Part shown: piece after piece, positions 7,905-39,224 of the stretch
Layout of the letters: the number at the start of each line of letters is the position of its first letter
How positions within the stretch are numbered: the stretch's first letter is position 1
Assembly (NCBI GenBank): GCA_965248355.1
Contig: OZ252098.1
Span: 1,854,423-1,918,422, forward strand
Source: Candidatus Latescibacterota bacterium
Lineage (GTDB): Bacteria; Latescibacterota; UBA2968; UBA8231
DNA: 64,000 bases
Reading direction: 5' to 3'
The notes under the pieces: model-generated
What the model was told of the DNA's origin: nothing
Seen by the model: only the letters and a program-made list of their open reading frames with translations
Databases searched by the model: none
Program-made: the position numbers and the translations under genes

Positions 7905-10858
7905 GATCGGGACTCCTTTTCCGGCGCCTCGGCCGGCGTGGCCGGCACCGCCCAGAGGGTGACCGTGACCTCGTCTGAAAGCCGGCGCCAGCGCTCGTCG
8001 GCGGTGCGCACGACCGCGGTCCAGCCGTTGTCGGCGGACGGGCTCTGGCGGATCTCGTAGTAGCCGCTCCCCTCCGTCTCCAGGGCGAAGCGCCAGCCCC
8101 CTTCCTCGGGCACGGGTCCGTGGACCTCGGTGGTCACCTGCTCGGCCTGGCGGCCGTGCAACCAGCTGTACCTCAGGCCCTCGGCATTGTCGTAGTGGAT
8201 CTCGTAGATCCCCCCGCCGTAGCTCGAGCGCCAGGTGAAGAGGCGCACGCCGCGGTCCCTCTCGCGCAGGGGATCCTCGGCCGGCGGCGGGATCGGCCCC
8301 CGCTCGAGCAGGTCCGACAGCGCCTGCAGGGCCTGCCTCTCCAGACGCCGGGCCGCCCGCAGGCGGACCCTGGCCCTCGCAGGATCGATCCTCGTCCCGT
8401 CCGCTTCTCCCGCGAACACGCCGAGGTCGCGCTGCAGGCCGCCGGAATCCTCGTCGAGCTCGTCCGCCACCCTCTGGTAGGCCGTCCCCGCGGCGTGGAG
8501 CAGGTCGCGCCGGGGCCCGGGACTCTCGCGGCCGGCGGCGGCAAGGAGGAACCGCGCCGCCCTTCTTCGAGCCTCGATCAGGGGCGGCAGGTCCCCCGAG
8601 CCCATCCCCGCGAGCCGGTCCCGCTCGCCGTTAGCTGCGAGCCACTCCTCCGTCCACGGGAGCCGCTCCCAGTCCCGGACCCAGGAATCCCAGGCGTGGA
8701 GCCCGGCCGGCCGCCGCTGCACGCCCCATGGCTCCGGCTGGTCTTCGGTCCAGATGGTCAGACCCATCTCCAGGGCCAGGGCGGCGACACTGTCCACGAG
8801 GGCGCCTTCGGCCAGGGGTTCTCCGGCCTTCTCCACCACCAGGATGGGACAGTTGCGCCAGAGGCGGTCGGGATAGCGGGCCCACCACTGGTCCCCGACG
8901 AGGCGCCATCCCTCTTCCTCCGGCCCAAGCTCGTAGAGCTCGATGCCCTCCGCCGTCTCGCGGTAGCCGGCGGCCACCTTCCACCGCTGGTCATCATCCC
9001 CGATCACCACCGGCAGGCCCCACGACAGCCAGCCCTTGATCTCCTTGAGGCTCTCCCGCGCCTTGAAGCCGCTGGAGAGGCTGTAACCCAGGCCGAGCCA
9101 TTCGAGCATGCGCGGGGGCTCGGGACCGTACCTCGGCCACCCGACCGGGGAGTACGGACTCGAGTACGCGCCGGACCAGAACGGGGGCCCGCTCAGGGTC
9201 GCCAGGGTGAGGCTGTCGAGATCGGCCCGCCGCAGCCCGGCGGCGTCGGCCGCGGCTCCGAGCAGGCTCTCGGTGGTGGGCCGCGGAGGTTGCCGGAGGA
9301 GGACCGAGTCCGGGGCGGACAGGGCCGCCTCGAGGGGCTCGCCCCTCCCGAGATCCCCCACCCTCTCCTCGGAGAACCAGCCGTCGTAGATGTCCTCGGA
9401 GCGAACCCTCGCCGCCGGCGACAGGGGATCGGCGCCGGTGACGCTGTAACGGACGCCCGGATAGCGGTTGCCGGCGAAGCGCGGATCGTCGATCGGCTCG
9501 CAGACGTTGAAGGAGAAGTCGAACCGCCCCCGCCTCTGGGAGGCGCGCACGAGGAGCCTGTGCTCCCCGGCCTTCAGGTGTCCCCGCAGCTGCTCCTGCC
9601 CCAGCATGTGGCGGCGGCGGCCGTCGAACTCGTAGAGCGGCTCTCCGTCGATCCAGACGGTGAGGCCCTCGTCCGAGCCGAGCCAGAAGCGCACGGAGTC
9701 CGGACGCGCCATGGTGAAGGTCGTGTACGCATACACGGCGCAGTGGATGGGATCGTCGAAGTGGGAGTCCAGGTCGATCTTGTCGTGGCCGAACCAGGTC
9801 ACCTCGGACCAGCCGCCGCGGCCGGGCTCCGGGCGCAGCCCGGCCACCTCTTCGGGGGTGAACCGGTGATCGCGTTCCAGCGGTCCGAGAAGGGTCCAGC
9901 GGCGGGGGCCCATGCCGTAGTTGGCCTGCTCCGTCCACTCGCCGCCGCCGTAGTCGGCGCCCGCCTTGACGTAGCGCATGGCCAGGGACTCCACGTCGCC
10001 GCCGAGGACGCGGATGTTCTCGTACACGCCCGGTCCCCGGCCCCGCTGCCAGGCCAGGTCGGCGAACTCGAAGTCGTCCGGATTGAAGCCCATGAGCCGG
10101 GCCACCACGAGGTCGGTGGCCACCGGGTCGGCGCCGGCGACGATCGTGTTGGCCCGCCGGGGAGTGCCGCCGAAGGCGCCGCCCTCGCTGCCGGCGATCA
10201 TGTCGACCACGTTCAGGTCGACCTCGGTCAGGCCCCACAGGTCGACCCAGCACTCGTCCTGCACCCGCGGGGCGTGGGGGATGCCGGCGGGCCGGCGCTC
10301 GGTGCCGCCGCCCTTGTTCCAGCCGTAGATGTGCCCGGGAAGGATGCCGAGGTGGTTCTTCATCGCCGCCGTTAACTTGGCGCCGTGGGTCTTGGCCACG
10401 GGACAGTTGATCCAGGCGTCGGCCTCGAGGATGGTGGCGGCGATGTCGTAGTCCGGGTCGGCGAGGCCTCCGCCGCGGGGCGCCACGCGGACGGGACGGT
10501 CGAAGTTCAGGTCGACGCACTCGATGTCGACGCCCCGCCGGCGCAGCTCGCTCACCGTGGCCCGGTGTCCGGCGACCTCGAAGCCGTCCACCAGCCAGCC
10601 CGACGGCACCTCCTGGTCGGTGCTGTCCGCCAGGGTCGGGCTCATCCAGCCGCCGGCGCCCTCGGCGATGGAGATGCGCGCGCCCGGGGCCGCCTCGTGG
10701 ACCAGGATCGCCACGGCCCGCACCACGCGGGCGTCGGTGACGATGCCGGAGCCGGAGGGGTCGGGTATGGTGACGTTCGGCTTGATCGCCACCCACCGCG
10801 CCGTATCGGGCACGAAGGCCCCCATGCCCCCCACGAGGTCGACGGCGCGGCGCACCAT
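7901..10858 (-). CDS. large multi-domain protein with N-terminal DUF362, central PA14/jelly-roll-like domain and unknown C-terminal domains; probably secreted and N-terminally longer (candidate start 11011)
   Basis: DUF362 hallmarks are VAIKPNVT...TDARVVRAVAILVHEAAPGARISIAEGAGG...NCPVAKTHGAKLTAAMKNHLGILPG...LNVVDMIAGSEGGAFGGTPRRANTIVAGADPVATDLVVARLMGFNP. The jelly-roll-like block is ...VRFWLGSDEGLTVWIDGEPLYEFDGRRRH...HRLLVRASQRRGRFDFSFNV. In frame directly upstream lies NRIAHILLVLLFSSWAAAQSFRVGVVP, a signal-peptide-like segment, with no ATG/GTG/TTG before it (see findings). Confidence 0.7.
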   Translation of the reverse strand: MVRRAVDLVGGMGAFVPDTARWVAIKPNVTIPDPSGSGIVTDARVVRAVAILVHEAAPGARISIAEGAGGWMSPTLADSTDQEVPSGWLVDGFEVAGHRATVSELRRRGVDIECVDLNFDRPVRVAPRGGGLADPDYDIAATILEADAWINCPVAKTHGAKLTAAMKNHLGILPGHIYGWNKGGGTERRPAGIPHAPRVQDECWVDLWGLTEVDLNVVDMIAGSEGGAFGGTPRRANTIVAGADPVATDLVVARLMGFNPDDFEFADLAWQRGRGPGVYENIRVLGGDVESLAMRYVKAGADYGGGEWTEQANYGMGPRRWTLLGPLERDHRFTPEEVAGLRPEPGRGGWSEVTWFGHDKIDLDSHFDDPIHCAVYAYTTFTMARPDSVRFWLGSDEGLTVWIDGEPLYEFDGRRRHMLGQEQLRGHLKAGEHRLLVRASQRRGRFDFSFNVCEPIDDPRFAGNRYPGVRYSVTGADPLSPAARVRSEDIYDGWFSEERVGDLGRGEPLEAALSAPDSVLLRQPPRPTTESLLGAAADAAGLRRADLDSLTLATLSGPPFWSGAYSSPYSPVGWPRYGPEPPRMLEWLGLGYSLSSGFKARESLKEIKGWLSWGLPVVIGDDDQRWKVAAGYRETAEGIELYELGPEEEGWRLVGDQWWARYPDRLWRNCPILVVEKAGEPLAEGALVDSVAALALEMGLTIWTEDQPEPWGVQRRPAGLHAWDSWVRDWERLPWTEEWLAANGERDRLAGMGSGDLPPLIEARRRAARFLLAAAGRESPGPRRDLLHAAGTAYQRVADELDEDSGGLQRDLGVFAGEADGTRIDPARARVRLRAARRLERQALQALSDLLERGPIPPPAEDPLRERDRGVRLFTWRSSYGGGIYEIHYDNAEGLRYSWLHGRQAEQVTTEVHGPVPEEGGWRFALETEGSGYYEIRQSPSADNGWTAVVRTADERWRRLSDEVTVTLWAVPATPAEAPEKESRS

Positions 10859-11141
10859 CTGCAGGACCTGGCCGGCGGTGAGGGAATCGGTGCGCGCCGC
10901 GGGTGCGGCCAGGGATGCGTCGTCGGAGGGGACGACGCCGACGCGGAAGGACTGGGCCGCGGCCCACGAGGAGAAGAGCAGGACCAGCAGGATGTGGGCG
11001 ATTCGGTTCAGGACGGCTCTCTGCGGTCAAAAGGTCAGGGAAAAGGAATAGCGCCCCCCTGTGAGACATTGTCAAACGGTCGCCGGCTCACGCCGCGGCC
11101 CCGTTGACCCTCCTCCGGCCGGCGCCCAATATACCCGCCTC

Positions 11142-14100
11142 ATGGAACGACATCTCGAACGCGGCGACTTCCGCCTCCTCCTCGGATGCGCCGCCCTCAC
11201 CGTCCTCGGCCTGGTGGTGGGGGCCCGCTTCTTCTACGACGCCTTCCCCGAGGCGACCATCGACTTCGCCCTCACCCGCGGCGAAGCCCGGGAGGAGGCG
11301 GCCTCCTTCCTCGAGGGCCGGGGCCTCGACCTCGACGGCTACCGGCACGCCGTCCTGTTCCGCTACGACGACGGCGCCAAGACCTTTCTCGAGCGCGAGC
11401 TCGGCCTCGAGGGGGCCAGCGCCGCCATCGACGACCCGGTGCGCCTGTGGCGCTGGAGCAACCGCTGGTTCCGGGAGCGGCAGAAGGAGGAGTTCCGGGT
11501 CGAGCACACGACCACCGGGGACCTCGTCGGCTTCCGGCACCTGATCGAGGAGGAGGCCGCCGGCGACCGCCTGTCCCAGCCCGAGGCGCGGGGCTTGGCG
11601 CAGCGGTTCCTGTCGCAGGCGATGGGCCTCGACCCGGACCGGCTGGAGTTCGTCGAGGCCGAGACCACGGAGCGGCCCAACCGCGTCGACCACGCCTTCA
11701 CCTGGAAGCTGACCGGCTTCGAGGTCTCCGGGGCCAGCTACCGCTACCGCGTCGGCGTCCAGGGCGGCGAGGTCGGTGGCTTCACCGAGTTCCTGAAGGT
11801 GCCGGAAGCCTGGGAGCGGGACTACAAGGAGCTGCGTTCCCGCAACGAGACCACCGGCCTGGTGGCCTTCCTGTTCCTCTTCGCCACCTGGCTGGCCCTG
11901 CTCGTCCGTCTCGTCCTGAGCATCCGCAACCAGGACGTGCGGTGGCGCTTCGTCCTCGTCCTCGGGGGCATCGCCTTCGTCCTCACCTTCCTGGCCAACC
12001 TCAACGCCCTGCCGGTGGCGGTGTACAACTTCGACACCACCGGCACCTTCGGCAGCTTCCTGGCCGGGGGCGTGCTGGAAGCCGCCGCCGGCGCCCTGGC
12101 CATCGCCCTGGTCATCGCCTTCGTGGTGGCCGGCGGCGAGCCGGAGTACCGCCGCTGGTACGGGGACCACATCCGCCAGTCGAAGCAGTTCCTGCTCGAG
12201 GGGATCCGCACCCGGCGCTTCCTTACGGGCAGCGTCATCGGGCTGACGATGACGGCCCTCTTCATCGCCTACCAGAGCGTGTTCTACGTCGTGGCCGGAC
12301 GGTTCGGGGCCTGGAGCCCGGCCGACATCCCCTACCGGGAGATGGTCAACACCTACGTCCCCTGGGTCGTGGTGCTCCTCATCGGGTTCCTGCCCGCCGT
12401 CTCCGAGGAGTTCACCTCCCGCGCCTTCTCCATCCCCTTCCTGCACCGGATCCTCCGGCACCGCTGGGCGGCGGTGCTCATCTCCGCCGCCATCTGGGGG
12501 TTCGCCCACGCCGGCTATCCGCAGCAGCCCTTCTGGATCCGCGGCCTGGAGGTGGGGCTGGCAGGAGTCGCCGTCGGCTACGTCTTCGTGCGCTGGGGGC
12601 TGCTGCCGGTCCTGGTCTGGCACTACACGATCGACGCCTTCTACACGGCCCTGATCCTGCTGCGCTCCAGCGACCCCTACTTCGTGCTCTCCGCCGCCCT
12701 GTCGGTGGGCCTCCTGCTGCTGCCCCTCGGGGCGGCGGTGGTCCTCTACCTGCGGCGGGGGTCCTTCGTCGACCCCGGGCCGCTGCTGAACCAGGAGGAC
12801 AGCCCGCCCCTCGAAGAGGTGCGCCCGGACCCGCCCGCAGAGCCGGGACCCGGCGACGGGACCCCTCCCGAGGCCTCCGCCTACCGGCCGCTGAGCCGTG
12901 CCCGGCTCGCCGTCGCCGCCGCGGCCGTCCTTGCGGCGTTGTCGGTCTTCGCCCTCCAGAAGCCGGAACTGGCCCCGAAGGTCGACTACGGCCTGACCTC
13001 CGGGGCGGCCCTCGCCGAGGGCCGCCGGCACCTGTCCGCCCTGGGCGTCGACGTCGACTCCTGGCGCACGGTGGTGACCCAGGAGACCCCCTGGAGCTGG
13101 ACCGCCGTCGAGTACCGCGACGAGCGTGCCGGCCCGGCCATGGCCTCGGAGCCCTACAAGGGCGCTCTGGCGCCCTCTCTGTGGCGGGTCCGCTTCTTCC
13201 AGCCCGGGGAGAAGGAGGAGTGGTCGGTCCTGCTGCGCCCGGAGGACGGCGAGGTCTACGAGGTCCGCCACCAACTTGCCGAGGAGGCGCCGGGCGACAG
13301 TCTGTCCGAGGAGGAGGCGATGGCCGTGGCCCTGGACCACATGCGCGCCTTCGGCCTGGATCCGTCCTCCTTCACGCTCAAGGAGGCCTCCGCCGAGGAC
13401 CTGCCCGGGCGCCGCGACCACTGGTTCGAGTGGGAGGCGAAGGAGGGCGACCGGCGCAACCTCGACGAGGCCAGGTTCCGCTGCCGGGTGCACGTGGCCG
13501 GAGACCAGGCCGCCGGCCTGCACCGCTACATCAAGCTGCCCGAGGACTGGCTGCGGGAGCGCCGCCAGGGCTCCTGGTGGCGCACGACCTTGGAGTGGAC
13601 ACCCGCCGCCGTGGGCATGGCCGCGGCCGTGCACCTGCTGGTGCTCCTCGTGCAGCACATCCGCTCGGGAGCCCTGGCCTGGCGGCGGCCGTTCCGGCTC
13701 GGGCTCTTCGCAGCCGTGGTCTTCGCCCTCGCCCAGGTGAACGGGCTGCCCTCCTTCTACGGAGCCTACGCCACCGAGGTCCCCCTCACCCTCTACATGG
13801 TCATCCGCCTCGTGGGCTTTCTGTTCTCCGTGGTCACCGTCGGGCTTCTCGTGGCCGTGGCCGCCGGACTCTGCGGCTCCCTCTACCCGGCGGCCGAGGA
13901 CCGCATGGGCCGGACCGGCCTGCGCCTGCAACTGCGCGACGCCGTGCCCCTCGCCGCCCTCGCCGTCGCCGGGAGACTGGCCCTGGACCGCTTCTCGGGG
14001 ATCCTCGCCGCCGCCCTCCCCGCGGGGGCTTCCCCGCCCTCCCCCGAGATCCCGGAGGTCGGCTCCTGGGCGCCCGCCCTGGGCGGTCTCCTGGGCGCCG

Positions 14101-32171: not shown

Positions 32172-33251
32172 GTGAGGCGGAACTGCCCTGTTACCGGAGA
32201 GACGGCCCGGGTCGCAGAGGCCGGGGACCGAGTTACGGTCGAGCACCCCAGGCTCGGCCGCTACGTGCTCCACGCCGAGGCGCTCCCCTCCCTGGAGGCC
32301 GACGCCGGGGCCAGGGAGCGAATGGCCCGCTGGATCGCCGAATCACGGTCATTGGAAACCGAGGTGCCGGGCCTCACCGTTGAGCACGTTCACCTCTTTC
32401 AGCGACTTGCGGACCTGGAGGCGGCGGTCTCCGAATGGAACGAGCGGCGCCAAGCCATGACAGAGGCTGACGAGGACCGCCTCTGGAGAAAACTCCGACT
32501 GGAATGGAACTACAACAGCAACCACATCGAGGGCAACACTCTCACCTACCACGAGACCGAGCTGCTGCTCATCCACGGCCGCACGGCCGGCGGCCACCCG
32601 ATGCGGGACTACGAGGAGATGAAGGCGCACGATGTCGCCATCGACCATACCCGGTCCCTCGCAGGCGCGGAGCAGGCCATTGGGGAAGGCGATGTGCGGG
32701 ACCTGAACCAGATTCTACTGAAGGAGCCGTTCTGGCAGAGCGCGGAGACCCCGGACGGCCAGCCAACCCACAAGCGCATCGTCCCCGGCCAATACAAGAC
32801 ACAGCCGAACCATGTGCGAACAGCCACGGGAGAACTCCATCGATTCGCCGAGCCCGAGGAAACGTCCGCCTTGATGGCGGAATGGACACGTGAATTCCGT
32901 CGCGACCTGGAGCGAACAGCCTGCCCTCTGCCGTTGTTCCTGGCCGAATCGCATTGGAGCTTTCTCCGCATCCATCCATTCGACGACGGCAACGGACGCA
33001 CTGCGCGCCTACTCGCCAATTACGCTCTGCTTCGGGAAGACCTGCCGCCCATCGTGATCAGGAGCGAAGACCGTGACCCCTATATCGGTGCGCTCCAGAA
33101 TGCAGATCTCGGCTTCACGTTGCCCCTCGCCCAGTTCATGCTGGAGAATGTTCTCTGGTCGCTTGGGATAGGGATCCGGGCTGCCTCGGGTGAGTCGATC
33201 CACGAACCCGACGATACGGCCCAAGAAGGTGGATCTCTTCGTACGACATGA
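32172..33251 (+). CDS. Fic-family protein (class II: internal inhibitory SxxxEG motif), 359 aa
   Basis: The Fic motif is HPFDDGNGRTARLLANYALL. An inhibitory-type motif SNHIEGN lies ~150 aa upstream within the same polypeptide. The segment from 31.9 kb onward is lower in GC. Confidence 0.85.
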   Translation: MRRNCPVTGETARVAEAGDRVTVEHPRLGRYVLHAEALPSLEADAGARERMARWIAESRSLETEVPGLTVEHVHLFQRLADLEAAVSEWNERRQAMTEADEDRLWRKLRLEWNYNSNHIEGNTLTYHETELLLIHGRTAGGHPMRDYEEMKAHDVAIDHTRSLAGAEQAIGEGDVRDLNQILLKEPFWQSAETPDGQPTHKRIVPGQYKTQPNHVRTATGELHRFAEPEETSALMAEWTREFRRDLERTACPLPLFLAESHWSFLRIHPFDDGNGRTARLLANYALLREDLPPIVIRSEDRDPYIGALQNADLGFTLPLAQFMLENVLWSLGIGIRAASGESIHEPDDTAQEGGSLRTT

Positions 33252-33408
33252 GAGAGGGCCCGAGCCGCGCAGATCCGACATCGAAGTACTGGATAGCGTC
33301 TTTCACCTGCATGTTCGCCCAACCCTTGATGGCTTGGAGGATGCGCTCCACCGTCTGTCGGCGCTGTTTCGCGTCTCCCGCCGTATCTCGGGTATTGGGC
33401 AACTTCAG

Positions 33409-33777
33409 ATGATAGGGGGCGGCCTATTTGCGGGCGACCAGTGGGAACAGACGAAACAGCACCATATCGCAAGACGAGGATTCAAGCTGAGTGATGGGCG
33501 GCAAGTCCACCTACGGGAGGATTGCATATTCGAGGATTACACAGGAAGGGGAGACAGCAGTTTTGGGCTGATCCTGTCCGTCATGTGGAAACTGGGAGGA
33601 GAGGGATTCTCTTTCGAGGCAGCGATTGACGAGAAACCTCTCACGGAGATAGGTCACCGAATCCCCTATTCGGAACTCGACGAGCCAACCCTTGAAGTGG
33701 ACCCCACTGTGGACAGGCTCTCCAAGGCCATGATGAATGAAATCGTCAGTCGATCTGAAGGACCACAACAGAAGTGA
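33409..33777 (+). CDS. hypothetical protein (122 aa), weak call
   Basis: MIGGGLFAGDQWEQTKQHHIARRGFKLSDGRQVHLREDCIFEDYTGRGDSSFGLILSVMWKLGGEGFSFEAAIDEKPLTEIGHRIPYSELDEPTLEVDP... has protein-like composition and low GC. No family recognised and the start is unclear. Confidence 0.25.
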   Translation: MIGGGLFAGDQWEQTKQHHIARRGFKLSDGRQVHLREDCIFEDYTGRGDSSFGLILSVMWKLGGEGFSFEAAIDEKPLTEIGHRIPYSELDEPTLEVDPTVDRLSKAMMNEIVSRSEGPQQK

Positions 33778-33859
33778 TGGCCCACGACGCCCGCCTGGGA
33801 TGCGGCAAGGAACGACAGGCCTCCCCGAAGGATACCACCTCTACAATAGAGAGGATCGT

Positions 33860-34132
33860 ATGCTGCACGACGTTGTCTCTGCCGTCTATCGGGGTGGCTA
33901 CCTGATCGAGCTGGAGTTCGACGACGGCCAGCGCGGAACCGTTGATTTCGCAAAGTACTTGGAGAGGCGGGGTGTGTTCGAGCGGTTCCGGAATCTCGAG
34001 TTCTTTCGGAGCTTTGCTATCAACAAGGAGCTTGGGGTTCTGACGTGGGGCGACGAGATCGACATTGCGCCGGAAACCCTGTATGCGGAAGCCACGGGGA
34101 CCGGTCTTCCGGCTTGGACTGAATCCGGATAG
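33860..34132 (+). CDS. DUF2442-family small protein (90 aa)
   Basis: MLHDVVSAVYRGGYLIELEFDDGQRGTVDFAKYLERRGVFERFRNLEFFRSFAINKELGVLTWGDEIDIAPETLY matches the DUF2442 pattern (DG..G..DF......G.F..L.....F......G.L.W.....D..P). SD GAGAGG sits before the ATG. Confidence 0.6.
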   Translation: MLHDVVSAVYRGGYLIELEFDDGQRGTVDFAKYLERRGVFERFRNLEFFRSFAINKELGVLTWGDEIDIAPETLYAEATGTGLPAWTESG

Positions 34133-34560
34133 ACCGCCAGCCAGCCCAACCGAATGTGAGACGTGCATGCCGGACTGGGAGAAACGGGAGGCGCGTCTCG
34201 ATGCCGTGGTGCCGCGGTAGCCTCAGGCCGCGGCGATTGTTCCCCCAAGCGTTTCAAACAGCCGCTCGCAGTGAGCACACCGCTTCTTGACCTTGCCCGC
34301 ATCAATCACTTTCAACAGATCGCTCGCATGTTTGATCTTGTGGTAAGGTCCCTTCTGTGTGCCCTTCGTCGCTTCATCTAGAGACCGTTCGACGGTAGTC
34401 TTGGGAAGTGTACCCCGTCAACTGGACAGGAATTGGGCTTGTACAAGCGAGAGTCTCGAGATGTAATGGAGCCGTACTGCGCCCCGGCGCTGGGACCGAA
34501 GCCCCGCCTCCCGGACTTGCACCCAGGCCGGGCCACCGAGGCCGTGAGGAGCCCCCGCGC

Positions 34561-35388
34561 TCAGGCCGCCCGGTGGTAGACATCGCTGGGGGTCTCGTAG
34601 TCGAAGGCCTGGTGCGGCCGCTCGAGGTTGTAGAAGCGGAAGTAGGCCGCCACGCCCTCGATCAACTCGGGGACGCTGTCGTAGGCCTTCAGGTAGATGT
34701 CCTCGTACTTCAGGGAGCGCCACAGCCGCTCGATGAAGATGTTGTCCAGCACCCGGCCGCGGCCGTCCATGCTCACCCGGGCCCCGGCCGCCTCGACCCG
34801 CCCGGTGAAGGCGGTGCTGGTGAACTGGGCCCCCTGGTCGGTGTTGAAGATCTCCGGCCGCCCCTGGCTCAGGGCTTCCTCCAGGGCCTCCAGGCAGAAG
34901 GCCGCGTCGAGGGTGTTGGAGACCCGCCAGGCCAGCACGTAGCGGCTGAACCAGTCCATGACCGCCACCAGGTAGACGAAGCCGGAGGGCATCGGCAGAT
35001 GGGTGATGTCGCTGCACCACACCTGGTCCGGCCGGTTCACGGTCACCCCTCGCAGCAGATACGGATAGACCCGGTGCTGAGGGTTGGGGGTAGTCGGTCG
35101 CGGCCGGGGATAGATCGCCTGCAGGCCCAGGGCCTTCATCAGGCGGTGCACGCGCTTGGGATTGACCGGGTAGCCGTCCCGCCTCAGGGCCGCGCAGATC
35201 CGGCGCACGCCGTAGACCGGGTGCTCGGTGTAGATCCGGTCGATGGCGTTCATCAGGTCGAGGGTGAGCCGATCCGGCGCCTCCGGGCGGTAGTAGAAAC
35301 TGGAGCGGGCCAGCCCGAGCAGTTGGCACTGCCGATGCACGCTCAGCGGGCCGGGGTGCGGCTCGATGAGGGCGCGGCGCTCAGCCAC
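34561..35388 (-). CDS. IS3-family transposase OrfB (DDE integrase core)
   Basis: ...[42 protein letters not shown]...[11 protein letters not shown]...[13 protein letters not shown] has the rve-type integrase motifs. Confidence 0.85.
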
Positions 35389-35674
35389 CGAGAGCCTCGT
35401 GTTTTTTTTGAAGCCACTCCAGTTCCATCTGCAGCCGCCCGATCTGCTGGTAGAGCTCGGGCACCAAGGCGGCCTCGTCGTCGCCCCGGCGGGTCCCGGG
35501 GCCCCGGAAGACCTCGGGCAGCCGCTCCAGCAACTGCTTCTTCCAGCCGTGGATCTGGCTGGGGTGGACGGAGAACTTGTGGGCCAGCTCGTTGACTGTC
35601 TGCCGTTCGCGCAGAGCCTCCAAGGCCACCTTGGCCTTGAACTGCGCCGAATGCGTCTTGCGTTTCCTCGTCAT
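35381..35674 (-). CDS. IS3-family transposase OrfA (HTH_Tnp_1)
   Basis: [50 protein letters not shown]... is the typical IS3/IS911 OrfA. It overlaps orfB across the A-run frameshift window. Confidence 0.8.
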
Positions 35675-35717
35675 CCAAGCCCCTCCGGACAGTGGGTCGG
35701 TGGACGCAAAGTCTCGC

Positions 35718-36194
35718 TTAGCCACCTGTCCAGGATTTGGGGTACACTACCGGGAGCACGGCCTCGAGGTTCTTCGCCTTCGGAAATCTGCTCACCCTGA
35801 AGTCTTGCCCGTAGTAGGCTGTGAGAGCCTGCGGGTCGGCAACGATCCAGGTTTCCATCGACTGCACCATGAGGTGAACGCAAGCCTCTTCAGCAAAGCT
35901 CAGATCCCATCTGTCCCGGCTTTGCAGATGATCTCGAGAAGACTGATTGACCTTGACCGGTCCTTCGGCATCCACCAGCAGGACATTCACCACATTGTCA
36001 CTGCTCTTGACGGCATTCCTGAATCCTCGAAATGCCTCATCGCGGGGGCCGCAACAGACCAACTTCCAACGCATGGCCTTGCTCCTGGCCGCTTCCTTGA
36101 GGGACTGAAGAAAGGCGTCCATCCCCTGGCGAAGAGCCGCCCGGTTCTCCTTGCCGGTACCTCCGCCCTCCAAGTAGATGGCAATACCACTCAC
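35718..36194 (-). CDS. DUF4276-like (Toprim-like) protein, partner of the AAA ATPase; C-terminal 9 codons supplied by the IS3 terminus
   Basis: GTG 36194 overlaps the ATPase stop (GTGA). The protein [32 protein letters not shown]...[17 protein letters not shown]...[11 protein letters not shown]... has a Toprim-like acidic core. The last residues ...VYPKSWTGG* are encoded by the IS3 right inverted repeat (35725-35746). Confidence 0.6.
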
Positions 36195-37384
36195 GGGTTG
36201 GCGCCAAGCTCGCCCATCCGCCACAGGTCGCCAAGCCGGTAGTCGTCCAGCCAACTTGAGAGCTTCTCTGGATCGAGCCGCCGCAGCTCCGTGCCGGCTC
36301 CGGGTCGCTCGCAGGCGACGATGGCGGCTGGCTGATCGGTCAGCGCCGACACCAAGGCGTCGGAGTGCGTCGTGACCACAAGCTGCATCCGCTCTGAGGC
36401 CTCAACGAGAAGATCCGCGAGCATGGTCACGGCGTCGGGATGCAATCCGAGCTCGGGCTCCTCCATACAGACCAACGGTGGAGGTGTTGGGGACAGCAGA
36501 GTCGCCAACAGCCCAATGAATCGGAGAGTGCCATCAGACAGACGTGTTGCGGGGATAGGCGTGCGGAAGCCGGACTCGTGTAGGTAGAACTGTACTGTGC
36601 CCCCCGATATCGACGTGGTCATGCGCTCGAACCGGGGAAAGAACCGCTTGAGATGCTCATTGAATACCGGACCGGACTTGTGCTCGATCTGGTTGAGCAC
36701 CAATGCGAGATTACTGCAGTCGGGGAGCAGCCATTGCTCCGGAAGATCGGCGCGCTGCGGCTGTCGTATCCCGCCGTACCGGCCGAAGGTCCATTCTCGG
36801 AAGGTCTGAATGAGGTGGAACTTCACGCCGAGCCATGTCAGTTCGGGATATAGATCCAAGTCCTTACGCTGCGACAGTACCGACTGTTCCAAGGTGGGTT
36901 CGTCCAACTGCAATGTGCGCTCCTGGGACTGTTCACCAGGTGTCCTCACTCGAATCTTGATCATCCCTTTCTGATACTTGTAGTAAGAATATGGCCCGTC
37001 CCCCGGCGGAGTAGCTTCCTCGATTACCTCCTCCTGGATGTGGGCCTTTGGACCCATGATGGTAAAGGACAGACGGTACTTCAACGGCCTGCCGCTTCCA
37101 TAGCCGATGCTCTCGTAGGAACCTGTCTCGACTTCCAGGGTTGCAGCAGGCGGAGGCTTCGAGCCACTGCCCTTCCAGAGCCACTCCAGGGCACCGCCTC
37201 CGTCCCTGATCGCGGCCGCAAAATCCTTCGGTGCGGCTCTCAGGAGTTCCAGCACCTCGATGAAGTTGGTCTTCCCCGAGGCATTCGGACCGATGAGGAC
37301 GTTCAGAGGCTGCAGTTCGAAGGACTCCATGTCCGGAGGGAACGACAACAGCCCGCCCATGCGAAGACGCTTGATGAACTGCAT
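36191..37384 (-). CDS. AAA_21-type ATPase (OLD/PARIS/AbiL-like ATPase component), 397 aa
   Basis: Walker A LIGPNASGKTNFIEVLELL. Walker B/D-loop-like ...PPPLVCMEEPELGLHPDAV...VVTTHSDALV is the ABC-ATPase/SMC-like fold typical of abortive-infection ATPases. Confidence 0.8.
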   Translation of the reverse strand: MQFIKRLRMGGLLSFPPDMESFELQPLNVLIGPNASGKTNFIEVLELLRAAPKDFAAAIRDGGGALEWLWKGSGSKPPPAATLEVETGSYESIGYGSGRPLKYRLSFTIMGPKAHIQEEVIEEATPPGDGPYSYYKYQKGMIKIRVRTPGEQSQERTLQLDEPTLEQSVLSQRKDLDLYPELTWLGVKFHLIQTFREWTFGRYGGIRQPQRADLPEQWLLPDCSNLALVLNQIEHKSGPVFNEHLKRFFPRFERMTTSISGGTVQFYLHESGFRTPIPATRLSDGTLRFIGLLATLLSPTPPPLVCMEEPELGLHPDAVTMLADLLVEASERMQLVVTTHSDALVSALTDQPAAIVACERPGAGTELRRLDPEKLSSWLDDYRLGDLWRMGELGANP

Positions 37385-37750
37385 GGTTACCGGCTCCTCT
37401 CCCCCTGCAGTAATCTGTCAGGCGTGCAGTGACTCACCGAACCACCTCGTCCACCTGCGCCAGGATCTCCTCGACCGCCGGCCGGTCGGAGATGCTCTCC
37501 CCTGTGAACCTCCAGACGATGCGGCGCTCCGGGTCGATGATGAAGGCCGACGGCGCGGCGACGCCGTCGTTCAGGAGGTTGTAGACCCCGTAGTCCCGGG
37601 CCACGGCGCCGTCCTCGTCCGAGAGGATGGGGAACCCGGCGGCGGTGAGCTCCGCCATGTTGCGCGCGTCCTCCATGTCGTCGGTGCTGATGGCGGCGAG
37701 CGACATGTCGCGCTCCAGGAAGGCGGGATGGGACTCTGCCAGCTCACCTA

Positions 37751-38982
37751 GTGGTCAATCCACTTAGAATTGCGGAACAAGAGTGGCAGCCGTATCCTTT
37801 TTCCCCATCCCCTTTGTTGGAAAAGGAGTACGGCGTTGCCCAAGAAGAGATACATCGTCACTCTCACAGCCGAGGAGCGCACCGGGTTGCGCGATCTGAT
37901 CTCCAAGGGGAAAGCGGCGGCTTTCAAGCAGCGGCATGCGCGCCTTCTCCTGAAGACGGATCAAGGACCGCAGGGAGAGGGCTGGACCGACGAACGGATC
38001 GGGCAGGCGCTCGAGGTCCATCCCAGCACGGTCGAGCGTCTGCGCAGGCGATTCGTCGAAGAAGGCCTGGAGGCCGCCCTGCAGCGCAAGGAGCAGAAGA
38101 ATCGCCGGGCCAAGAAGATCGACGGGGAAGGCGAGGCTCGTCTCGTCGCGCTGGCCTGCAGTCCGCCGCCGGAGGGGAGAAAGGGCTGGACCCTCCGATT
38201 GCTGGCCGACCGCCTGGTGGCCTTGGAAGTGGTCGACCGGGTCAGCCCGGAAACCGTCCGAAAGACACTAAAAAAAACGACTTGAAGCCCTGGCGGCAGG
38301 AAATGTGGTGCCTGCCGGGCGCCCCCAATGCCGCCTTCGTCTGTGCCATGGAGGATGTGCTGGATGTTTATACCCGGCCCTACGATCCCCAACATCCCAC
38401 GGTCTGCCTGGACGAGACCAGCAAACAACTGGTGGGCGAGGTGCAGGCCCCTCGGCCGGCGATTCCGGGCCATCCGGCCCGGTATGATCATCATTATGTC
38501 CGCCAGGGCGTGGCCAACGTCTTCATGATGCTGGAACCGCTCACCGGCCGCTGCCACGTCCAGGTCACGCAGCAGCGCACCAAGAAAGATTGGGCTCGGG
38601 TGATGAAAGACCTGGTCGACCGCTACTACCCGGAGGCCGAGCGCCTGACCTTGGTCATGGACAACCTGAGTTCGCACCAGAAGGCGGCGTTGTACGATGT
38701 CTTTGCGCCGGCCGAGGCCAAACGCATCGCCGACAAGATCGACATTCATTTCACCCCGAAACGGGGCAGTTGGCTCAACATGGCCGAAATCGGGTTGAAG
38801 ATGCTGTCCCGGCAGTGTCTGGACCGACGCATCGCAACGATTCAGCAACTGAGCCAACAGGTCCAGGCTTGGCTGTCGCAACGCGAGAACAGCCAGGCCC
38901 CGGTCAAATGGCGATTCACCACCGAGAAGGCGCGCATCAAGCTGCACCGCCTCTATCCAGCATTGTTACCTGGATGAACCAC
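37751..38982 (+). mobile_element. IS630-family insertion sequence flanked by TA target-site duplication
   Basis: The ends are gtggtcaatccac... and ...ggatgaaccac, a perfect 8-bp match (GTGGT[C/T][A/C]ATCC). Flanking TA dinucleotides sit at 37749-37750 and 38983-38984. Confidence 0.8.
37770..38977 (+). CDS. IS630-family transposase (HTH N-part 37770-38285; DDE part continues in -1 frame after an A8 run at 38266-38273)
   Basis: The N-part MRNKSGSRILFPH...LTAEERTGLRDLISKGKAAAFKQRHARLLL is the HTH. The C-part ...VCLDETSKQL...LVMDNLSSHQ...WLNMAEIGLKMLSRQC is DDE-like. The slippery CTAAAAAAAACG joins the two frames (-1). Confidence 0.75.
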
Positions 38983-39224
38983 TAGCTGGGCCTTGCAGAA
39001 GCCTCAGAAGAATCCCCGGTAGAACACGAGGACCGCGGCGGCGCGGTCGTCGAGCAGGTCGGACAGGGACACGGGGTCGCCGTCCGCCGCTGGCAGGGTG
39101 AAGGCCGGCGCCTGCTCGTCGACGGAGACCGCCTTGGAAGAGGAACCGCAGCCCGGCAGAACCGCCAGGGCCGCGGCCGCCAGGAGCGGGACCACCCCTC
39201 TCGCCCCGCTCCTGGTGACGCCGT

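Follow-up and report, generated by a model that had tools for sequence, protein, structure and literature searches.

We analysed a window of 64,000 nucleotides from a Candidatus Latescibacterota bacterium (GenBank assembly GCA_965248355.1, contig OZ252098.1, positions 1,854,423 to 1,918,422 of the forward strand; all coordinates below are counted within this window). Two overlapping genes in the window, one for an ABC ATPase and one for a DUF4276 protein with a Toprim-like fold and its acidic residues, belong to the already catalogued family HEC-01 (Hma-embedded candidate 01; HEC-01A and HEC-01B in PADLOC), and the second gene is split by an insertion sequence (IS) of the IS3 family. With good confidence we read the locus as a chromosomal HEC-01-type candidate anti-phage copy in which the ABC ATPase was translationally coupled to a predicted Toprim metal-dependent nuclease of about 205 amino acids (aa), the DUF4276 protein, and which the IS3 insertion has most likely left non-functional. 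Apart from the disruption, this new copy is an ordinary member of its family.

The ATPase gene is intact, as judged by Pfam, PADLOC and tblastn. It occupies positions 36191..37384 on the minus strand and codes for 397 aa. A preliminary description, made from the DNA letters, had reported this open reading frame (ORF) with a Walker A motif GPNASGKT, and both are indeed there, along with a signature-like motif LSDGT, a Walker B motif LVCMEEPE and an H-loop TTHS. The Pfam profile AAA_21 covers the protein with its full length (profile positions 1-304 of 304, E-value 1.6e-36), while the PADLOC-DB model PDLC04177 (HEC-01A) matches residues 2-396 over profile positions 3-391 of 393 with an E-value of 3.8e-149. 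Other PADLOC models scored far lower on the same protein: AriA at 3.7e-34, mad3 at 1.1e-19, AbiLi at 3e-19 (a partial match), NsnB at 1.7e-16 and Old at 6.9e-13. The Old and ATPase-Toprim models aligned with some 50-65 residues around Walker B, Old with 65 residues only. The NCBIfam model MAD3 (NF047739) gave 78 bits against a cut-off of 420. Among solved structures, the matches of the ATPase were limited to the heads of SMC proteins and to the Walker B stretch of OLD.

The DUF4276 gene lies directly downstream on the same strand. Its GTG start (36194-36192) overlaps the TGA stop of the ATPase gene (36193-36191) in the tetranucleotide GTGA at 36191-36194, just as described before; an alternative in-frame GTG start is located at 36224-36222. 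The 5′ fragment of this HEC-01B gene consists of native codons 1-147 (35754..36194, minus strand), delimited by Pfam, PADLOC and the junction with respect to an uninterrupted metagenomic allele, L001, from which the window diverges right after the codon CTC (L147). A chimeric tail of 11 foreign codons and a TAA follows (35718..35753, minus strand), read from the end of the inserted element. The ORF ends at the TAA at 35720-35718 and codes for 158 aa; the length of 159 aa given earlier counts the stop codon, while the Toprim-like acidic core ascribed to the protein is present, with E9, D75-A-E77, E114 and D120 all retained.

Profile searches did detect the DUF4276 similarity that had been proposed for the small ORF, with a Pfam E-value of 2e-08, over profile positions 6-137 of 192 only. 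The PADLOC-DB model PDLC04201 (HEC-01B) matched at 1.8e-49, again over a part of the profile (1-143 of 202). Besides the HEC-01B models, no PADLOC-DB model matched the small protein at E-values up to 1, including mad4, AbiLii and AriB, and neither DUF4435 nor AriB was matched in Pfam (E up to 10) or in PADLOC (E up to 1). Since the other models score far lower on the ATPase and the small protein matches the HEC-01B models only, the precise family is HEC-01 and not PARIS, OLD, AbiL or MADS. The pair had been called OLD/PARIS/AbiL-like; this stands for the wider superfamily of defence-type ATPase and DUF4276/Toprim pairs, in view of the PADLOC HEC-01A/B matches, the fold match to the OLD Toprim and the literature, and falls for membership in PARIS, OLD or AbiL itself.

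The interrupting element is an IS3-family insertion of 1350 bp (±1 nt) at 34404..35753 on the minus strand, recognised by Pfam, by its inverted repeats and by its blastn boundaries against L001. Window positions 34089-34403 (315 nt) are 100% identical to this allele, and both flanks of the element join at one L001 nucleotide, position 740; therefore, the inserted DNA was delimited as 34404-35753. An IS3 element had earlier been placed at 34410-35746, with the last nine codons and the stop of the small gene encoded by it. The element and the foreign tail are real, and the comparison with L001 corrects the extent to the limits given here and the tail to 11 codons plus stop. The element is apparently intact: Pfam identified in it an orfA (HTH_Tnp_1) that runs to a stop at 35381 and an orfB (HTH_21, rve and rve_3) at 34561-35388, and an A8 slippery or frameshift run is found at 35402-35409. 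The terminal inverted repeats are imperfect, 27 nt long (34404-34430 and 35725-35751), with cores at 34409-34430 and 35725-35746. The core TGTACCCC-N5-CTGGACAGG is common to at least 120 metagenomic elements, which reach 5 nt further outward. No further copy of this element, or of the IS630-type element described below, was found in the window or in 80 related loci.

The 3′ end of the DUF4276 gene, which the preliminary description considered replaced and rewritten by the IS, is in fact still present. Translation of the minus strand just past the element reads LPKTTVERSLDEATKGTQKGPYHKIKHASDLLKVIDAGKVKKRCAHCERLFETLGGTIAAA*, and from K148 on it agrees residue for residue with the C-terminus of P0001, the closest homologue. 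This displaced fragment, established by translation and by its 100% identity to L001, holds codons 148-206 (KTTVERSLDEATKGTQKGPYHKIKHASDLLKVIDAGKVKKRCAHCERLFETLGGTIAAA) and the stop at 34223..34402 on the minus strand (coding from 34402 to 34226, stop at 34225-34223); it carries K164, Y167, K169 and H172 as well as C189 and C192. The gene is split after codon 147, between …EAVL and KTTV…, and its remaining 59 codons are kept 1.35 kb downstream. Removal of the IS in silico restored a 206-aa protein that matches HEC-01B over profile positions 1-198 of 202 at an E-value of 1.3e-70 and DUF4276 over positions 10-191 of 192 at 3.7e-20. The disruption is a simple insertion that displaced the native C-terminus and did not eliminate it. 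Since the displaced fragment has kept both an open frame and its identity to the uninterrupted allele, the insertion appears to be recent.

One feature expected of such an event could not be identified. We found no target-site duplication from the TG...CA cores (34409/35746), from the 5-nt-extended ends or from the comparison with L001; only 1 nt is common to both junctions with respect to L001, and no choice of boundaries gave a clean 3-5 bp duplication. This speaks for an assembly artefact, in which a read with the IS would have been joined to the locus as a chimera. Such an artefact is nevertheless extremely improbable, as the junctions on either side coincide at a single nucleotide of the uninterrupted allele and nothing is lacking from the element, which has its two inverted repeats. 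Moreover, a second, clean insertion, of an IS630-type element with a TA duplication, is located nearby, upstream of the ATPase gene, and indicates active IS traffic in this genome.

The effect of the insertion on the protein can be judged from its homologues. Of 1014 homologues of the small protein, the best 120 were nearly all 197-233 aa long (typically 204), bar a few fragments, so that about 59 residues are missing from the truncated protein; intact homologues, at 204-206 aa, continue far past the IS junction. Conservation was read from an alignment of 84 homologous DUF4276 sequences, in which E9, G10-12, D75, E77, K164, Y167, K169 and H172 are invariant and E114, D120, C189 and C192 near-invariant.

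The AlphaFold2 model of the intact homologue P0001 (predicted score in the local distance difference test, pLDDT, 93.8; predicted template-modelling score, pTM, 0.89) shows four parallel strands (3-10, 42-49, 68-75 and 106-109) that alternate with helices; residues 148-205 form four more helices at the C-terminus. A Toprim-fold nuclease is expected to have a conserved glutamate after strand 1 and an acidic DxD-type motif after strand 3, on a parallel, four-stranded sheet; E9 and D75-A-E77, invariant in the 84 homologues, and the four strands of the model agree with this. The best match of the model in the PDB by Foldseek was the C-terminal Toprim region of the Xanthomonas OLD protein (6njv; E-value 0.011, probability 0.95, template-modelling score 0.42); the Thermus OLD protein (6p74) ranked sixth, and the other matches were generic alpha/beta folds. 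The Toprim assignment made in two papers agrees with this fold match: HEC-01B was described as a TOPRIM protein that conserves the metal site of OLD (Payne et al., bioRxiv 10.1101/2024.01.29.577857), and the study of Menshen placed DUF4276 in the Toprim superfamily and equated it with Mad4 (PMC12065111).

The break after residue 147 removes the four C-terminal helices together with the invariant K/Y/K/H block, and for this reason the truncated DUF4276 product is most likely inactive. The break lies downstream of all four Toprim strands and of the residues E9, D75, E77, E114 and D120. One could argue, therefore, that the 158-aa protein, with 147 native residues and a foreign tail of 11, is still a working nuclease and the system still active. 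We regard this as very unlikely: about 29% of the protein is gone, including the four helices and K164, Y167, K169, H172, C189 and C192, and the lengths of the 120 best homologues do not go below 197 aa except for a few fragments.

How an intact HEC-01 pair might act can be sketched by analogy with PARIS, OLD/Gabija and the MAD3-MAD4 pair of MADS. An oligomer of the ATPase would sense infection and keep the Toprim nuclease bound or under control; once a phage gives the cue, the DUF4276 nuclease would cut nucleic acid (DNA or transfer RNA, tRNA), and the cutting would block phage growth, possibly at a cost to the cell.

Besides the failure to find a target-site duplication, several points weigh against our reading of the locus as an inactivated defence nuclease system. 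The structural likeness of the DUF4276 model to the OLD Toprim is weak, and a search of solved structures with a profile of the DUF4276 alignment returned nothing meaningful, the best match being a response regulator at an E-value of 0.065. The inactivity of the truncated protein is something that we infer from its sequence as the most likely outcome. The pair is not located here within an Hma, MADS or restriction-modification system; its neighbours are genes for a redoxin, a Fic protein and a DUF2442 protein. There is no published biochemical mechanism for any protein of the HEC-01 or DUF4276 kind. Published support for defence by the family is mixed overall: the HEC-01 representative tested by Payne et al., an ABC ATPase plus a TOPRIM protein with a conserved metal site, gave no protection in E. 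coli MG1655 (bioRxiv 10.1101/2024.01.29.577857), and in E. coli B a cold-seep representative conferred protection from one or more of the phages T4, T5 and T7 (PMC12881386).

These results bear on the question of whether the pair is immune at all. It could instead be a housekeeping pair, engaged in DNA repair in the manner of RecF and RecR, or a selfish cassette of the addiction or toxin-antitoxin type. RecF, an ABC ATPase, and RecR, a Toprim protein, make a comparable pairing. The recF model TIGR00611 has a weak match to the N-terminal part of the ATPase (E-value 5.6e-05), at 22.5 bits, which is far under its 172-bit cut-off. The one negative phage assay and the toxin-antitoxin-like neighbours (Fic and DUF2442 here; HicB in the relative L002) also fit a non-immune role. 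On the other hand, the HEC-01 family was discovered embedded in the Hma and MADS defence systems, one defence assay was positive, pseudogenisation is frequent, and the relatives are patchily distributed over at least eight phyla or classes at about 58-78% identity. Altogether, we find a non-immune role quite improbable and retain the reading of the pair as a candidate defence system.

The distribution just mentioned includes Vicinamibacterales, Paracoccaceae, Spirochaetia, Binatia, Gammaproteobacteria, Thermodesulfobacteriota, Rhodothermales and others, and its patchiness indicates horizontal spread. When viral contigs were searched with the ATPase, no relative turned up, and evidence for a phage-borne pair is thus absent.

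The state of the pair across its relatives was assessed in 80 species-level genomes, each with a single full-length tblastn match to the ATPase; the loci were picked by the ATPase score. In 59 of the 80 loci, a full-length DUF4276 ORF overlaps the ATPase stop, starting at -3 nt or, on an in-frame codon that is itself conserved, at -33 (an overlap of 4 or 34 nt). In about 19-21 of the 80, the DUF4276 gene is deleted, truncated, frameshifted or interrupted next to a full-length ATPase gene. The decayed partners (loci L011, L014, L016, L020, L024, L025, L028, L029, L030, L033, L034, L040, L041, L046, L050, L056, L062, L071, L078 and L080) lie just downstream of position ~11180 in each locus. For example, L030 has an IS5-type element at about codon 143, some four codons from the site of the IS3 element in the window, L078 has a 2.3-kb cargo insertion in the DUF4276 partner, and several Vicinamibacterales keep N-terminal DUF4276 remnants of 8-30 codons. 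Each degraded locus is close to intact ones (synonymous divergence, dS, of 0.15-0.3), and the losses are therefore many and recent.

Tentatively, this pattern may mean that in this HEC-01 clade the Toprim partner is lost again and again through separate events, the IS3 insertion in the window among them, and the ATPase stays intact, either since it is a costly, self-toxic effector that is shed quickly, as expected for abortive infection, or since the ATPase has a role independent of the effector; we rate this as possible and still doubtful. The asymmetry may be partly a matter of ascertainment, because the sample was chosen by the ATPase score. A related reading would have the ATPase retain a use once its Toprim partner is gone, by itself or together with another effector; the IS would then remodel the system and not kill it. 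In favour of it are the full-length ATPases beside broken DUF4276 genes, the several Vicinamibacterales in which DUF2442-fusion genes and a large gene resembling those of methyltransferases come after the remnants, and the median pairwise ratio of nonsynonymous to synonymous divergence (dN/dS) of the ATPase, which is 0.197 between degraded loci compared to 0.157 between intact ones and about 0.16-0.20 in all classes, values confounded by shared history and ascertainment. However, selection by the ATPase score favours intact ATPases, the closeness of degraded loci to intact ones means that the dN/dS mostly predates the loss, and MADS needs mad3 as well as mad4. We consider this rather unlikely, and the inactivated HEC-01 copy remains our reading of the locus in the window.

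Among the Vicinamibacterales we also observed two other arrangements. Some have two divergent HEC-01-like pairs in tandem (L040, 7962-11433; L024, ~9670-11182), where an ATPase and a DUF4276 gene at 35-38% identity are located directly upstream of a second ATPase gene whose own DUF4276 partner is degraded. In L024, L028 and L034 (about 11100-12700), as well as in L029, L046 and L062, the DUF4276 gene is deleted, and after the ATPase gene come one or two genes of the DUF2442 type and a methyltransferase-like ORF of ~1260 aa; a fusion of one such DUF2442-like gene to a domain of ~300 aa with no assigned function occurs in part of these loci. This is possibly an Hma- or BREX-like context.

A further observation concerns the history of the DUF4276 gene in the window. 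Window positions 35754-36472, aligned with L001 positions 22-740, form an allele mosaic with 84% identity over the stretch. The two alleles are identical or nearly so from about DUF4276 codon 43 to the 3′ end, with one amino acid difference (S/R at 134); in codons 1-42 and the 3′ end of the ATPase gene they have diverged strongly. Because of this mosaic structure, the comparison of the two alleles points to a possible breakpoint of recombination within the DUF4276 gene.

The region from ~32 kb to 39 kb has a guanine-cytosine (GC) content of 57-65%, compared to 70-75% in its flanks. A lower-GC island with Fic and DUF2442 genes had been noted here, and Pfam identified both genes on the plus strand: a Fic-domain gene at 32172-33251 (Fic, 4.2e-15) and a DUF2442 gene within 33737-34132 (9.3e-14). 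Together they make up a syntenic block (32172..34132) that is convergent with the HEC-01 pair. A scan of 34100-37800 for promoters and terminators found none. The closest genomes are metagenome-assembled genomes of Candidatus Latescibacterota, with ATPases up to 91% identical. Two of them with long contigs, L002 and L003, share the gene order, namely beta-lactamase-like, AP_endonuc_2, redoxin, ATPase, DUF4276 and then the convergent DUF2442 and Fic genes, without either IS. From this we conclude that the module is ancestral to this clade and that the IS insertion is specific to this genome.

The redoxin gene (AhpC/TSA) upstream of the ATPase gene, at 37434-39222 on the minus strand, has an in-frame TGA (39006-39004) at the redox-active position. 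The TGA is conserved in the relatives L002 (8195-8764), L003, L004 and L008 within the motif FYRGFF-TGA-GFC, or TGA-PVC in L008 (U-x-x-C). A conserved hairpin, CAGCU-AGGUG-AGCUG, is located 17 nt after the TGA, and the frame runs on for 113 codons in all four relatives. From its sequence, the redoxin looks like a selenocysteine-containing, peroxiredoxin-like protein with an element similar to a selenocysteine insertion sequence (SECIS); no gene for tRNA-Sec was found in the window. The IS630-type element at 37751-38982 (DDE_3 transposase, inverted repeats GTGGTTCATCC / GTGGTCAATC) is inserted, with its TA duplication, in the CTAG of the putative SECIS hairpin, 21 nt after the TGA, and splits the redoxin gene. 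Its end is 367 nt upstream of the ATPase start. With this element upstream and the IS3 element downstream, the HEC-01 operon has a different IS insertion on each side.

The window adds an IS-inactivated, stand-alone copy from Candidatus Latescibacterota to a family that has been modelled in PADLOC and tested twice, and it carries little weight alone. The uninterrupted alleles L001, L002 and L004 and the sequence repaired in silico could serve as a matched intact/broken pair for the question of whether the DUF4276 C-terminal helical region is needed. The high rate of partner decay in the clade is a hint of a costly Toprim effector and is the only lead that is perhaps worth a dedicated study.

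Several known systems resemble the pair. Naturally, the closest is HEC-01 itself, whose models both proteins match near end to end once the IS is removed and which has the same order of an ABC ATPase gene and an overlapping DUF4276/Toprim gene. The copy in the window differs in that it stands alone beside redoxin, Fic and DUF2442 genes and is not nested in Hma, and in its IS3-split Toprim gene. In MADS of Pseudomonas aeruginosa, MAD3 and MAD4 are likewise an AAA_21-type ATPase and a DUF4276 protein; each of mad3 and mad4 is required for defence, and cells survive a deletion of the methylase gene mad5 only if mad2 or mad3 is deleted too (bioRxiv 10.1101/2023.03.30.534895). MADS was rejected for the locus, with the ATPase below the MAD3 cut-off, no mad4 match for the small protein and none of mad1, mad2 and mad5-8 nearby, of which mad6-8 are mandatory.

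PARIS, too, consists of two genes, for an ABC ATPase (AriA) and a Toprim effector (AriB): the AriA sensor hexamer holds AriB and releases it on a trigger, whereupon AriB cleaves tRNA (PMC11464382). AriB, however, is a DUF4435 protein of ~35 kDa, and the partner in the window is a DUF4276 protein of ~23 kDa; PARIS was rejected, as the small protein has no DUF4435 or AriB match and AriA fits the ATPase far worse than HEC-01A. AbiL was rejected as well, with a partial AbiLi match and no match of AbiLii to the small protein. The OLD family and GajA of Gabija also combine an ABC ATPase with a Toprim nuclease, and an OLD protein (6njv) gave the best structural match of the DUF4276 model. In those proteins, the two parts are fused in one polypeptide, while the window has two separate overlapping ORFs, and class 1 OLD and Gabija were rejected on this ground and on the short Old match. 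Finally, the NsnC variants of Menshen with a DUF4276 C-terminal domain place a DUF4276 Toprim effector beside the ABC ATPase NsnB (PMC12065111); Menshen is a three-gene system (NsnABC), and the window has neither NsnA nor the NsnC architecture, its ATPase being paired with a separate, overlapping DUF4276 gene as in HEC-01.

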